A stretch of 64,000 bases of DNA from Escherichia phage P479. The stretch lies in the sequence record MW269952.1, one strand, 5' to 3'. The translations under genes were made by a program, and so were the position numbers. This document shows, in pieces, positions 57,009-62,850 of this stretch. The notes beneath the pieces were generated by a model. That model saw only the letters and a program-made list of their open reading frames with translations. It searched no databases and had not been told where the DNA came from. The stretch's first letter is position 1. Each line of letters starts with the position of its first letter.

Positions 57009-57563
57009 ATGAGCTTATATACTGACCTTATATCAAATGTAGACTGGTTTGGCGGTAGTGGCCTTGCTACCGAAACTAATACAGTTCTTTATAGAATCCG
57101 TGGTGACTTGGGTTATTCCAATGATTTCTTAAGAAGAACAACAAGTCGCGGCGATACTACTAAATTGCCTTTTATTTTTGCTTTAGCTGAAGACCTTTCT
57201 TTCGCAGATGCCTTGGAAATTATTGACGTAAATCTGGGTATCCAACAAGCAGAATTCGCTGGACTACGTTATTCAGTGTATGCTTTAAACGAGAGCAATG
57301 ATTGCGTACTTCTTAATGCGGCAGATGATGATTACCATTTAGTATGTTATGTGACGCTAGAGAATGGTGATGTATTTGGAATGGTTGACCGCCGCCCAGC
57401 TTATACTGATATTAAAAATTATGATAAAGCTGAGCTTCTTGATTTGACGGCTGAGTACACATTAGAGAGTCGTAAACGGAAACGTAAGCTTAATCGTTTT
57501 ATTGCTGAATGTCGTGAATATGCTAAAGGGGTTCAAAATGCGAACGTTATATCTGCCAAGTAA
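57009..57563 (+). CDS. hypothetical protein with C-terminal FIAECRE junction motif
   Basis: 184 aa from ATG 57009 (GAGAGGAG upstream). Confidence 0.45.
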   Translation: MSLYTDLISNVDWFGGSGLATETNTVLYRIRGDLGYSNDFLRRTTSRGDTTKLPFIFALAEDLSFADALEIIDVNLGIQQAEFAGLRYSVYALNESNDCVLLNAADDDYHLVCYVTLENGDVFGMVDRRPAYTDIKNYDKAELLDLTAEYTLESRKRKRKLNRFIAECREYAKGVQNANVISAK

Positions 57564-57897
57564 ACCAGAAAAATTTGTATACGCAGACAAGATTGATAAA
57601 GACTTGATGCCTCCATTTGGAGCTTTGTCCATGTGCATCGTTGGGGTTATAATGATGGTGATTTGTGGAGATATGGATATCATCAGTGTTGGAGTCGCCT
57701 GGTCACTAATAATTGCAGCACCTTTTATTACAGTCCTGGGTATGATATTGATAAACGTGTGGCATCAAAATCATATGAATAAAGGATATCGTGGGCGAGT
57801 TAAAGAGTGGGAACAAAAATGTGTTTCCCTACAAGAAGAGCACAAAATTAAATGTGCCGAAGAATTTATTAAGGAGGTTCGTAATGGAACGGCCTAG
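57538..57897 (+). CDS. small membrane protein (two predicted TM helices) with C-terminal FIKEV junction motif
   Basis: 119 aa from ATG 57538; hydrophobic segments. Confidence 0.45.
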   Translation: MRTLYLPSKPEKFVYADKIDKDLMPPFGALSMCIVGVIMMVICGDMDIISVGVAWSLIIAAPFITVLGMILINVWHQNHMNKGYRGRVKEWEQKCVSLQEEHKIKCAEEFIKEVRNGTA

Positions 57898-58237
57898 TCT
57901 TGCATCACATGTTTATCAATTGGCTGAATATGATATTGGTGCCAATTTATTATTAGGGATTGTCACCGCCATGCTTGGCGGTTTGGTTGGTCTGGTAATG
58001 ACCACGGTTATGGCTGCAATCGAGGGAGTGATGCCCATTGAGATGGGTTTCTTTATGATAATCGCTCCGGCTGTTGTGTCTTATTTTATCCCTGTTGTGT
58101 ATGATATCTGTCACACAAACGCCGTGAATGCTCCTAGTCGGAAGAGATATGCTTCAGCAATGGCTGAGTATAATAAGTTCCTGAACAAAACAAAACGTAA
58201 TGACCTTGAAACCTTTATTAAGGAATGTAAATCATGA
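57884..58237 (+). CDS. small membrane protein (two to three predicted TM helices) with C-terminal FIKECKS junction motif
   Basis: 117 aa from ATG 57884 with AAGGAGG upstream. Confidence 0.45.
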   Translation: MERPSLASHVYQLAEYDIGANLLLGIVTAMLGGLVGLVMTTVMAAIEGVMPIEMGFFMIIAPAVVSYFIPVVYDICHTNAVNAPSRKRYASAMAEYNKFLNKTKRNDLETFIKECKS

Positions 58238-58524
58238 ATAAAATTGAAATTGCTATCCCCAAGTATTATGATGAGAAATCTGCAGAAAAAGCTATCTATT
58301 CTCTTCTAAATAAGACCTCTGAAATTGAAAAACACTGTGAAGAAATCGCAGATGAATATGGTATCCAATTTGGTACCGGTGATTATGGTTCAGGCCGTAC
58401 ATATTATCCTGTCGGTTATGAATGCTCCCAGTGGTTTAAAGATGAAATTGAAAACAACGGCGGTGAAGTTGAAAACGGTGTCGTTACAGTTGGTGCTTGG
58501 GTCTCCTCTTCGGCAATGTGCTAA
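58234..58524 (+). CDS. acidic small protein, member 1 of a C-terminal W-x-SS-x-x-C family
   Basis: 96 aa, ends GAWVSSSAMC; ATGA overlap with upstream gene. Confidence 0.5.
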   Translation: MNKIEIAIPKYYDEKSAEKAIYSLLNKTSEIEKHCEEIADEYGIQFGTGDYGSGRTYYPVGYECSQWFKDEIENNGGEVENGVVTVGAWVSSSAMC

Positions 58525-58533
58525 GGAAATGCT

Positions 58534-58815
58534 ATGATGAATGATTACAGTAAAAATAAAGAACTGGCTAACGCAGTAAATGACATCCATAAAGCTATTC
58601 GTCGTGCCGAGGAAATTGCAAACAAATATGAGACTCATTTTAATATATACCCTGCTCGCGGTATGGGCGGTGACTATTATTCTCCTGGCGCCTTGAAAGC
58701 CGACCTTGCTCGTTGGGAAGAACACGGCCATCCTGAATGGGCTATTGTTAATACCCATGACTACACAACTGACCTGGAAAAAGGCGGTTGGGTGTCCTCT
58801 TCTTCTGAATGCTAA
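58534..58815 (+). CDS. acidic small protein, member 2 of the C-terminal W-x-SS-x-x-C family
   Basis: 93 aa, ends GGWVSSSSEC. Confidence 0.5.
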   Translation: MMNDYSKNKELANAVNDIHKAIRRAEEIANKYETHFNIYPARGMGGDYYSPGALKADLARWEEHGHPEWAIVNTHDYTTDLEKGGWVSSSSEC

Positions 58816-58824
58816 GGAAATAAA

Positions 58825-61284: not shown

Positions 61285-61286
61285 TT

Positions 61287-61330
61287 GTGTACATCCAAGT
61301 GGGACTATGACACAATGGTCCCACAATCAA
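61287..61330 (+). promoter_or_regulatory. early promoter plus stem-loop element (GTGTACATCCAA...; inverted repeat GTGGGAC/GTCCCAC)
   Basis: Shares GTGTACATCCAA with the 54444 element. Confidence 0.4.
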
Positions 61331-61343
61331 TGAGGAAAATATT

Positions 61344-62030
61344 ATGAACGGTCCGAAAACTTTTAATTCTAAAGCTCGTGCAGTAGGCGGATTTGCAGGT
61401 CATATTTCTAATGATGATATTAAAAACGAGCCTATGTTCTTTAACTGTGATTTGAATTTTGCTGCACAAAATGGCGGTCCTATTACTCGTAGCTTTATTA
61501 CTAATCTCCCTGATGAGTGGAAAGCCGTTGAATGTGTATTTGATTCCCGTGTACACATGTTAATGCCTGGCTGGTACCCTGCAATTCCAGGCTTCCACCA
61601 TGATGATGTACCACGTCCGGATATTCCGGTCGGTCAACACTTTATTACCGCAGGGCAACCTGATTATGATAATCCTCGATACCATTCTGAACATATTCTT
61701 GGTCTTGTTAACGCTGATGTGTGTCCTACTCATTTTGCAACCGGAACTGCCCAATTTAGTCAGATTCCTGAAGGCGAACTTATCTATCGCCAGTGGCATA
61801 AAGAAGTTCTGGAAAAAATTGAGTCCAATGAATTAACCAAGTGGGATGCTCCTGACCGCACGTTGCTCCAGTTTGATTGGCAGACATGGCATACAGGTTC
61901 TCGTGCAGTAAGTAATGGTTGGCGCTGGTTTGGTCGTGTGTCTCGTAATACTGACCGTGTTAAAAAGATTACAAATGAAATCCGCGTTAATGCTCAAGTA
62001 TATCTGGAATTCCCTATGGAGGGCTGGTAA
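61344..62030 (+). CDS. hypothetical 228-aa protein
   Basis: ORF with conserved initiation region; His- and Trp-rich; no family recognised. Confidence 0.45.
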   Translation: MNGPKTFNSKARAVGGFAGHISNDDIKNEPMFFNCDLNFAAQNGGPITRSFITNLPDEWKAVECVFDSRVHMLMPGWYPAIPGFHHDDVPRPDIPVGQHFITAGQPDYDNPRYHSEHILGLVNADVCPTHFATGTAQFSQIPEGELIYRQWHKEVLEKIESNELTKWDAPDRTLLQFDWQTWHTGSRAVSNGWRWFGRVSRNTDRVKKITNEIRVNAQVYLEFPMEGW

Positions 62031-62617
62031 TGGCCCTTTATGAACCCGGTTGTATGGGTGTTGATGTAAACTTCATCCGCCGGGCAGAAAATGCGGGTAT
62101 AATTGTATCAAGAGATGAATTTATGATTACCAAAAAATATTGGGCGAACCTTGATGATGGTGATGAAGGAATCAAGGTGGAAAATGTTGATTGGTCGCGA
62201 TGCAATCGTCATGTGAAAGAGCTTTTAATTAAGGAATATAAAATGGGATACATCATTAATGGACATCAACCAGAACCACTCAAAGAACAGACACCCGACC
62301 CATTAATTTCTTATAGCAAGAAATATGGATTTCGTACCTGGAGTGATGAATTTGATAAATTAATTTGTTCCAGGTTTTATGCCTGGTCTGGAATCTTATT
62401 TTTACCATTCCTGTGGTTTTTCCTGACAGGTAAAAATGAAGCACCTGTAGCTGTAATGGGCGCGTGCTTTTCTACTGCTCTTGCTGGACTTATTGCATCA
62501 TTTTTATGGACTATGATTATTGAAGTACCTTTTCGTATTTCTAAAGTTAAAAAGGTGTACGACGATATCACTAAGAAAAATACATTGAACTCTTTTATTG
62601 AGGAATGCCGTAAATGA
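62030..62617 (+). CDS. protein with soluble N-terminal domain and C-terminal membrane hairpin, ending in the FIEECRK junction motif
   Basis: 195-aa ORF; hydrophobic segments near residues 120-160. Confidence 0.45.
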   Translation: MALYEPGCMGVDVNFIRRAENAGIIVSRDEFMITKKYWANLDDGDEGIKVENVDWSRCNRHVKELLIKEYKMGYIINGHQPEPLKEQTPDPLISYSKKYGFRTWSDEFDKLICSRFYAWSGILFLPFLWFFLTGKNEAPVAVMGACFSTALAGLIASFLWTMIIEVPFRISKVKKVYDDITKKNTLNSFIEECRK

Positions 62618-62850
62618 GTATTGCAATTTATATTAAATCTGAGTCATGTGATTCTTATCTGTATTCCTATGACACCGGAACATCAGAAGAGAAAATCAAA
62701 GAAGATTTAGAAAGCGACTTGGATATGTTCCGACCAATTTCCGATTACATGATTCAAGTTTCTGATAGTGAAAGCCCTTCATTGGAAAATAGACTTGAAT
62801 TTTTAATGAGCGATATTTTTAACCAATCATGGAAACGAGACGATGAGTAA
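62614..62850 (+). CDS. hypothetical acidic small protein
   Basis: 78-aa ORF, ATGA overlap with upstream gene. Confidence 0.4.
   Translation: MSIAIYIKSESCDSYLYSYDTGTSEEKIKEDLESDLDMFRPISDYMIQVSDSESPSLENRLEFLMSDIFNQSWKRDDE

Follow-up and report, generated by a model that had tools for sequence, protein, structure and literature searches.

The window analysed here is a stretch of 64,000 nucleotides from Escherichia phage P479 (sequence record MW269952.1). Four early genes in it, counterparts of T4 e.5, e.4, e.3 and e.2, end in nearly the same short sequence, which lies where one gene meets the start of the next. An earlier note, made from the sequence alone, regarded these junctions as a recombination site for in-frame cassette exchange between otherwise dissimilar genes, three of them coding for predicted membrane proteins. 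All four sequences and the peptide ends were found as quoted there. The similarity of the junctions is clearer as a peptide than as DNA.

Between positions 56900 and 63000 the window shares 93-94% identity with SP18-like coliphages (Gaprivervirus) and about 85% with JS98-like phages (Dhakavirus), and by this similarity it is an SP18-like Gaprivervirus, i.e., a T4-like phage. The annotations of SP18, JS98, RB69 and T4 give one order for the early-gene cluster: e.6 - e.5 - e.4 - e.3 - ... - e.2 - nudE - e. The four genes of the window occupy the same place, between e.6 (56373-56966) and nudE (62843-63295) on the early-gene strand. By position and profile matches, the window genes e.5, e.4, e.3 and e.2, whose 3' ends form the four junctions, are orthologues of the T4 genes (a putative one in the case of e.5).

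The e.5-like gene (57009-57563, + strand; ATG 57009, in an open reading frame (ORF) that opens with TTG 56991) codes for a soluble protein of 184 amino acids (aa) ending in ..NRFIAECREYAKGVQNANVISAK. It matches phrog_8788 at E=7e-111, and its position corresponds to that of T4 and RB69 e.5, which end in ..FVKECREYVK.. and ..FIMECREYVK.. No phmmer match to the T4 or RB69 proteins was found once its last 30 residues were removed. The protein has a weak match to phrog_2607 (E=0.006, residues 75-177), and by eye it has a Y/W-S-V-x-x-L-N-D/E segment in common with T4 e.5, as well as the same position and the same C-end, FxxECREYxK. The 3' end of the gene overlaps the start of e.4, as it does in T4.

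The e.4 homologue (57538-57897, + strand; 119 aa from 57538 or 125 aa from 57520; a membrane protein ending in ..EEFIKEVRNGTA) matches phrog_2604 at E=4e-45 and T4 and RB69 e.4 in phmmer, and the SP18 annotation calls it e.4. The e.3-like gene (57884-58237, + strand; a membrane protein of 117 aa ending in ..LETFIKECKS) matches phrog_2330 at E=5e-46, with a cross-match to phrog_2203 and phmmer matches to RB69 and T4 e.3. The e.2 homologue (62030-62617, + strand; a membrane protein of 195 aa ending in ..LNSFIEECRK) matches phrog_2203 at E=4e-65 over residues 32-195, the profile match beginning at M32 (62123), and is annotated as e.2 in SP18, JS98 and RB69.

All four gene ends lie on the + strand and share the DNA TTTATT-NNN-GAR-KKY-MRW, coding F-I-x-E-C/V-R/K. 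The motif of junction 1 is TTT ATT GCT GAA TGT CGT (F-I-A-E-C-R, 57498-57515, e.5-like). Junction 2 (57862-57886) has TTT ATT AAG GAG GTT CGT, i.e., FIKEVR at 57865-57882 (e.4). Junction 3 (58214-58236) reads TTT ATT AAG GAA TGT AAA TCATG, with FIKECK at 58214-58231 (e.3-like), and junction 4 (62594-62616) reads TTT ATT GAG GAA TGC CGT AAATG, with FIEECR at 62594-62611 (e.2).

This similarity exceeds chance. The degenerate pattern TTTATTNNNGARKKYMRW, built post hoc from the four junctions, has 4 sites in 64 kb, all of them at the junctions, compared with 0.10 expected. The peptide FI.E[CV] at most 16 residues from the C-terminus occurs 4 times versus 0.02 in residue shuffles (87 putative genes). 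Compared in pairs, the 18-nt motifs are identical at 12-15/18 positions; the null for equivalent 3' positions is 4.9 +/- 1.9, and 13 or more is reached there in 0.03% of pairs. The shuffles and null distributions thus rule out chance, or AT-richness combined with a Shine-Dalgarno motif, as the source of the likeness. None of the four junctions appears in the 20 highest-ranking DNA repeat families that an unbiased repeat search gave for the region. A possible fifth and weaker instance, missed by the earlier note, is F-L-E-Y-C-R at 59833-59850 (+ strand), near the C-terminus of a soluble 109-aa gene (59539-59868). It is kept in SP18 and JS98.

The earlier note had each junction code simultaneously for the end of one protein and for the Shine-Dalgarno sequence and start of the next gene. 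This holds for junctions 2-4, in which the next ATG lies 1-2 nt past the Arg/Lys codon and the Shine-Dalgarno sequence is 6-9 nt upstream, inside the upstream ORF. Junction 2 has AAGGAGG 6 nt before the e.3-like ATG 57884. Junction 3 has AAGGA in the K-E codons, 9 nt from an ATG (58234) that overlaps the stop TGA, and junction 4 has GAGGA in the E-E codons, 9 nt from the ATG of the 62614-62850 gene, which again overlaps the stop TGA. It does not hold for junction 1, whose motif sits 15 residues before the stop. The ATG 57520 quoted for this junction is homologous to the T4 and RB69 e.4 start and has no Shine-Dalgarno sequence; ATG 57538, the start used by the SP18 annotators and by gene callers, has AAAGGGG upstream.

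The C-terminal peptide and its carriers

The motif was collected in 32 non-redundant instances from 8 T4-like lineages, and the region downstream of e.6 was compared in 11 further phages. The first residue is F in 29/32 instances and F, Y or W in all 32; I or V follows in 31/32, and C and R are found in 26/32 and 29/32, respectively. The Glu is present in only 15/32. All six Arg codons are used (AGA 13, CGT 6, CGA 4, AGG 4, CGC 1, CGG 1), and so are both Cys codons (TGT 15, TGC 11). Across the instances codon positions 1-2 have high information and position 3 has low information.

T4 itself carries the motif in e.5 (FVKECR, ..KFVKECREYVK..), e.4 (FVKESR, ..KFVKESRCKSQS), e.3 (FVIDCR, ..EFVIDCRKIK) and in a remnant of e.2 (FITECR). 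Five genes bear it in RB69, four in Klebsiella phage Roth34, four in Entb_45 (Enterobacter), four in Winklervirus Kc304/X20, five in Providencia phage PSTRCR_127 and two, weakly, in Aeromonas phage CC2. The e.5 orthologues have N-domains of about 170 residues that are nearly unalignable between genera, yet F-[I/V]-x-x-C is kept in all of them. The peptide is thus kept across Tevenvirinae genera and in an Aeromonas phage with free synonymous change, which argues for selection on the peptide rather than on the DNA or RNA. These alignments show a conserved C-terminal peptide of the form hydrophobic-x-x-[F/Y/W]-[I/V]-(K)-x-C-[R/K].

The T4 remnant deserves a separate remark. The annotated T4 e.2 (NC_000866, 67473-67960, minus strand; 103 aa) is a truncated gene relative to e.2 of the window. 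In the alignment to the window e.2, the T4 frame runs on through TAG and then TAA to the remnant ..NNFITECRK(LK), which overlaps nudE. A frameshift as the cause of the short T4 gene is ruled out by these two in-frame stops, and in the T4 reference e.2 appears to have become a pseudogene recently.

According to Kyte-Doolittle hydropathy, the e.4, e.3-like and e.2 proteins each have two hydrophobic helices and a basic tail with the motif at its end; in e.2 an N-terminal soluble domain precedes the helices. Hydropathy thus agrees with the earlier note on the three membrane proteins, as do existing annotations: SP18 and JS98 annotate e.2 as a membrane protein, and RB69 annotates e.2, e.3 and e.4 as predicted membrane proteins. 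We treat the three as predicted two-helix inner-membrane proteins. The AlphaFold2 (AF2) model of the e.3-like protein has helices at 9-45 and 52-116 forming a hairpin; its predicted local distance difference test score (pLDDT) is 60, i.e., low confidence, and it was read for secondary structure only. The copy number of two-helix genes varies among phages from 1 to about 5.

The claim that the carriers are otherwise dissimilar fails for e.4 and e.3, which are homologous over about 108 columns (HHalign probability 86%, E=5e-6, 108 columns). Without the last 14 residues the probability is 48% (P=2e-4); there is also a PHROG cross-match (E=2e-3 over about 90 residues) and a common N-terminus, M-x-K/R-P-x-L. 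The full e.2 and e.3 proteins match as well (PHROG cross-match E=1e-3, HHalign probability 92%). The claim stands for e.2 without its last 14 residues and for the soluble carriers. Iterated hidden Markov models (HMMs) pull e.4, e.3 and e.2 into one set and recruit no other membrane ORF. Paralogy of e.2 is plausible from its architecture, position and motif. Common descent of the carriers is therefore graded: supported for e.3 and e.4, plausible for e.2.

The family appears small and restricted to phages. A word-indexed homologue search with the e.3-like protein returned 9 close relatives only. A profile search of 1.84 billion representatives gave 10 hits, seven of them real, including one fragment of 42 aa, and no bacterial homologue. 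The real hits are all e.2, e.3 or e.4 proteins of T4-like phages, and the six full-length ones all end in the motif (6/6).

The soluble carriers comprise the e.5 family and proteins of 99 aa in Entb_45, 102 aa in Roth34, 161 aa in PSTRCR_127 and 109 aa in the window. They share with the membrane tails only the motif, about 9-14 residues. A tail-only HMM ranks most of them directly after the membrane set. The idea of a recombination site "rather than protein homology" is not supported by these comparisons: the peptide is conserved with synonymous freedom, the genes are orthologues of T4 genes, and e.4 and e.3 are homologous to each other.

We consider it likely that the four gene ends are alike mainly through a conserved C-terminal peptide that overlaps the ribosome-binding site of the next gene. 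The likeness of the junctions comes from one conserved peptide, in which all four proteins end. In these tightly packed early genes the peptide is coded on top of the next translation-initiation region, which consists of a Shine-Dalgarno sequence and an ATG that overlaps the stop or follows it by a few bases. Selection would act on the peptide, and the Shine-Dalgarno sequence would be fitted by the choice of AAG-GAR or GAG-GAA in the two codons before Cys (x-x), or of AGG-AAA or AGA-GGA for Arg-Lys/Gly. The membrane proteins would be diverged tandem paralogues, and the same tail end would be found on e.5 and on a small number of other soluble proteins in the cluster. By the positive-inside rule the basic tail is probably cytoplasmic, and the low-confidence AF2 model suggests that it is helical. 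An amphipathic helix with a free cysteine would then have hydrophobic positions -3, 0 and +1 and Cys +4 on the same face. We regard the motif as a probable shared tag for interaction or assembly, through which e.2 to e.5 would attach at the membrane to one another or to a partner they have in common. Recombination would be a side effect, as in the loss of e.4 in Dhakavirus and the swap of the e.3 hairpin in phage MX01.

Several points weigh against this explanation. The AF2 models are poor, with pLDDT of 60 for the e.3-like protein and of 40, which is unusable, for the e.5-like one. Once its last ~14 residues are taken away, e.2 has no significant similarity to e.3 or e.4. The tail-only HMM gives E=0.002-0.12 for most soluble carriers and about 1-7 for several e.5 orthologues; common descent of the motif in the soluble carriers cannot be demonstrated, and it could have spread there by recombination. 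Searches of Pfam, NCBIfam, PADLOC and PDB sequences gave no meaningful match. Finally, within the window the F, I and R codons of the motif are all TTT, ATT and CGT, which has a joint probability of about 1e-3 under local codon usage (a post hoc figure) and may reflect local homogenisation or selection at the messenger RNA (mRNA) level.

A related explanation, which is possible but rather improbable in our assessment, takes the motif as a portable C-terminal tag. By analogy with the capsid-targeting sequence of phage internal proteins, of which it would be a C-terminal counterpart, the tag would dock a changing set of accessory proteins on a common partner or on each other. The docked proteins would be the membrane-anchored e.2, e.3 and e.4, the soluble e.5 and several unrelated small proteins, and since the tag's coding sequence is fused to the initiation region of the following gene, the same ~25-40 nt would also serve as a homology arm, so that payloads would be swapped in frame.

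Whichever its function, the C-terminal motif is uncatalogued, with no entry in Pfam, NCBIfam, PDB or PADLOC. Rfam gave nothing meaningful on the region, and a literature search on e.3, e.4 and e.5 gave unrelated papers only. The motif ties together the uncharacterised T4 proteins e.2 to e.5 and a few other proteins of the cluster across many genera, and so provides a handle on early-gene roles.

Gene gain, loss and exchange around the junctions

That the junction is conserved as DNA, as a recombination module for the in-frame gain, loss and exchange of cassettes between unrelated genes, appears unlikely. The idea does account for what happened to e.4. A 25-nt repeat brackets this gene: copy 1 (57517-57541, + strand, GAATATGCTAAAGGGGTTCAAAATG) holds the ancestral e.4 ATG (57520), the Shine-Dalgarno sequence AAAGGGG and ATG 57538, and copy 2 (57862-57886, + strand, GAATTTATTAAGGAGGTTCGTAATG) is junction 2 with the K-E-V-R-N codons. 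The copies are identical at 18/25 positions, a level that only 0.1% of the 3655 initiation-region pairs of the window reach. Exactly the interval from ATG 57538 to ATG 57884 is absent from JS98 and from all of the Dhakavirus clade, and JS98 and MX01 have one hybrid copy of the repeat. Since e.4 is in the same place in T4, RB69, Roth34 and Entb_45, the Dhakavirus state is a loss by direct-repeat crossover. However, the deletion used the repeat 4 codons past motif 1 and not the motif itself.

The second case in favour is e.3 of MX01, in which the 270 bp that code for the membrane hairpin, between the ATG and the beginning of the tail, are replaced. Identity between MX01 and JS98 falls from 90-100% on either side to 30-60% in this segment, which has the 25-nt initiation region at one end and the conserved tail at the other. 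Mosaic e.3 alleles occur elsewhere too: besides the divergent hairpin segment of MX01 (1793-2069 in the comparison with JS98; MHKPSKTDPGY...), the database variants P0008 and P0009 combine an MX01-type N-terminus with a window-type hairpin. A module would also fit the three alternative C-ends of e.5-like proteins, which are set by the following gene, the differing copy number of two-helix genes, and the unusually uniform synonymous codons of the four window copies.

Against it, across lineages the peptide is kept and the DNA is not, and the junctions are missing from the top DNA repeats. Moreover, of the approximately eight indel or replacement events that were mapped in the region, most have no copy of the motif at their breakpoints and used other repeats or microhomology. 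One paralogue copy was gained or lost at 58788-58830 inside the paralogues' own repeated junction, without a motif copy. The same is true of the segment 59291-60131, which is missing in TH44 and vB_YenM_P8, of its part 59291-59512, missing in TH22, and of an insertion in SP18 and JS98 at 61295-61331. In T4 neither the 11 genes that separate e.3 from e.2 nor the 78-aa gene after e.2 is present, and in both cases a motif junction is found on one side only; ORF130c, which is present in some genomes and absent from others, likewise has the motif on one side only.

Phage VR7 at first sight offers an e.5 cassette replaced at junction 1. This is ruled out by its alignment to window positions 55222-57570, which reveals a deletion of 2.35 kb with 7 nt of microhomology (AAAATTT) inside genes. 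The deletion joins the gene 54982-55476 to the interior of e.4, so that e.6 and e.5 are gone and an N-terminally truncated 'e.4' is annotated.

Thus one clear indel (e.4) and one segment swap (e.3 of MX01) are bounded by the junction repeat, and about six other events lack a motif copy. The proposal of recombination at the junctions fits these two cases, as a consequence of the shared sequence and not as its cause, and it does not fit the majority of events. As far as genome comparison goes, the junction is an occasional crossover point and not a dedicated or privileged recombination site: direct repeats of the tail and initiation-region sequence now and then provide the homology for unequal crossover, which any direct repeat next to variable DNA could do as well.

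Other genes and repeats of the region are also relevant to its variability. The interval between e.3 and e.2 contains four small tandem paralogues (58234-59286) and seven further genes (59280-62030); downstream of e.2 are the 78-aa gene (62614-62850), which starts at junction 4, then nudE and the lysozyme gene e (63322-63816). The paralogues (phrog_899; 96, 93, 72 and 77 aa) all terminate in W-x-S-S-x-x-C, the Cys being the final residue, and have the junction TGCTAAGG..ATG in common. A fifth paralogue (65 aa, ..SWVSSSYEC) is present in SP18, TH41, TH44 and JS98 at 58788-58830, where the alignments overlap by 42 bp; this points to unequal crossover within the repeated junction as the likely source of the copy.

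The initiation region GAGGAAAATATTATG is repeated exactly in front of four different genes (55887-55901, 60132-60146, 60313-60327 and 61332-61346), and a fifth copy with 2 mismatches lies at 56997-57011, i.e., there are 5 matches versus 0.29 expected. The right-hand ends at 60131 (TH44 and vB_YenM_P8) and 61331 (the extra gene of SP18 and JS98) fall on this repeat. RB69 ORF133c and a gene of PSTRCR_127 end in a near-copy of it, GAGGAAAATAATATG. There are also two intergenic hairpins, both at sites of variable gene content in relatives: GTGGGACTATGACACAATGGTCCCAC (61300-61325), closely followed by the repeated initiation region at 61332, and ATCACAAGGATGTGAT (59512-59527), directly before AGGAGG and the start at 59539. 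The loss of e.4, the swap of the e.3 hairpin and the indels at GAGGAAAATATTATG illustrate how tandem paralogy gives rise to short direct repeats that shape gene content.

Translation initiation over the motif

The mRNA rather than the peptide could be what is selected: an A/U-rich leader (UUUAUU) and a Shine-Dalgarno sequence would form an optimised initiation or coupling region, with the peptide as a by-product. We find this very doubtful. It would explain why the next ATG lies -1 to 10 nt after the Arg codon in most instances, and why the x-x codons are often AAGGA or GAGGA, spelled with AAG and GAG, which are the rarer codons. It would also explain why Arg is AGA or AGG in 17/29 instances, compared with 23% usage in window genes; this excess is consistent with a purine-rich constraint on the initiation region just 5' of the next ATG.

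The Shine-Dalgarno sequence, however, floats within the motif: in some instances the x-x codons hold it, in others the Arg/Lys/Gly codons. With K-E, E-E or K-G as x-x, it is AAGGA, GAGGA or AAAGGA, and Arg is then often CGT. With T-E or I-D, which allow no Shine-Dalgarno sequence, Arg is AGG or AGA and the codon after it AAA or GGA, so that the sequence reads AGGAAA or AGAGGA. At least five instances of the motif lie outside any downstream initiation region, the next start being 22-75 nt away with its own Shine-Dalgarno sequence. Among them are the 109-aa gene of the window (the next gene begins 65 nt past its stop), the 102-aa gene of Roth34 and the e.5 genes of Entb_45 and Kc304. The motif of junction 1 has no Shine-Dalgarno sequence either. 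Substitutions track amino-acid classes (F/Y/W, I/V, six Arg codons), and we know of no role of the conserved Cys and Arg codons in initiation regions, which also speaks against selection on the mRNA. Because the Shine-Dalgarno sequence floats and the motif is kept where no start adjoins, the peptide is probably primary and the initiation region overlaid on it by codon choice.

As judged from sequence comparison, the feature is real and its origin is ordinary: a peptide kept in a family of paralogues or modules, combined with predicted translational coupling. 'Junction modules' in the hyperplastic regions of phage genomes can be conserved peptide ends lying over initiation regions, and a codon-level test is advisable before such a module is labelled a recombination site.

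Comparison with known systems

The closest counterparts are the T4 genes themselves. T4 e.5, e.4, e.3 and e.2 (PHROGs 8788/2607, 2604, 2330 and 2203) have the same order and position as the window genes, to which they are linked by strong profile matches, the same C-terminal motif and the two-helix architecture of e.2 to e.4. They differ in three respects: the N-domain of T4 e.5 is barely alignable to that of the e.5-like protein; about 4 kb (11 genes) separates e.3 from e.2 in the window and in RB69 but not in T4; and T4 e.2 is broken by two in-frame stop codons.

In translational coupling, stop and start codons overlap (ATGA, TAATG) and the Shine-Dalgarno sequence lies inside the upstream ORF. 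Junctions 2-4 have exactly this layout, so coupling is predicted for them. Unlike ordinary coupled junctions, which are not known to share a conserved peptide, those of the window have one that recurs at many junctions and across genera.

The T-even capsid-targeting sequence (MKTYQEFIAEA[R/K/S]) resembles the motif in its F-I-x-E-small-basic pattern. The prohead protease cuts this sequence after I-x-E, and the [L/I]-x-E site is invariant. The capsid-targeting sequence is N-terminal, cleaved, free of a conserved Cys and carried by soluble proteins packaged in the capsid, whereas the window motif is C-terminal, sits partly on membrane proteins and has conserved Cys and Arg and a variable Glu. 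The C-terminal position of the motif and Glu in only 15/32 speak against a prohead-protease site. In relatives, internal-protein genes a few genes beyond this cluster, downstream of e (L001 11041-11340; L003, L005, L006 and L007), begin with MKTYQEFI[A/T]EA[K/R]. In the capsid-targeting sequence there is a published precedent for a short peptide, of about 10 residues, kept on highly diverse and otherwise unrelated T-even accessory proteins in the same genome neighbourhood (PMC3012670). For all these parallels, a processing or targeting signal related to it is highly improbable, given that the motif is C-terminal, that three carriers are membrane proteins, that the Glu needed for cleavage varies and that Cys, the best-conserved polar residue, is absent from the capsid-targeting sequence. 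The likeness is probably a coincidence because the motif Glu is not conserved and the Cys is absent there.

PeSLs (promoter-early stem-loops) are repeated regulatory cassettes for modular shuffling in the hyperplastic regions of T4-like phages (Arbiol et al. 2010, PMC2839356; Comeau et al. 2014, PMC4122927). Like the window junctions, they are short repeats at gene boundaries of a hyperplastic region, and genes flanked by direct copies are lost or gained through recombination, as with e.4. PeSLs are intergenic and consist of a sigma-70-like promoter and a terminator stem-loop, whereas the window junctions are overlapping coding sequence with a Shine-Dalgarno sequence and are conserved at the peptide level. 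No terminator-like site was found at any of the four junctions. The single promoter-like match is a weak one (9/12) that overlaps junction 3, and the count of such matches in the region, 32, is not above that in shuffles (25.8 +/- 5.3). The junctions are thus ruled out as PeSLs, the defining promoter and terminator being absent.

Classical deletion studies of T4 rII reportedly found deletions between short direct repeats. Both the loss of e.4 (18/25 repeats) and the VR7 deletion (AAAATTT) fit this mechanism. Repeats of the rII type are random, whereas the repeat that flanks e.4 would exist through tandem paralogy or the shared junction.

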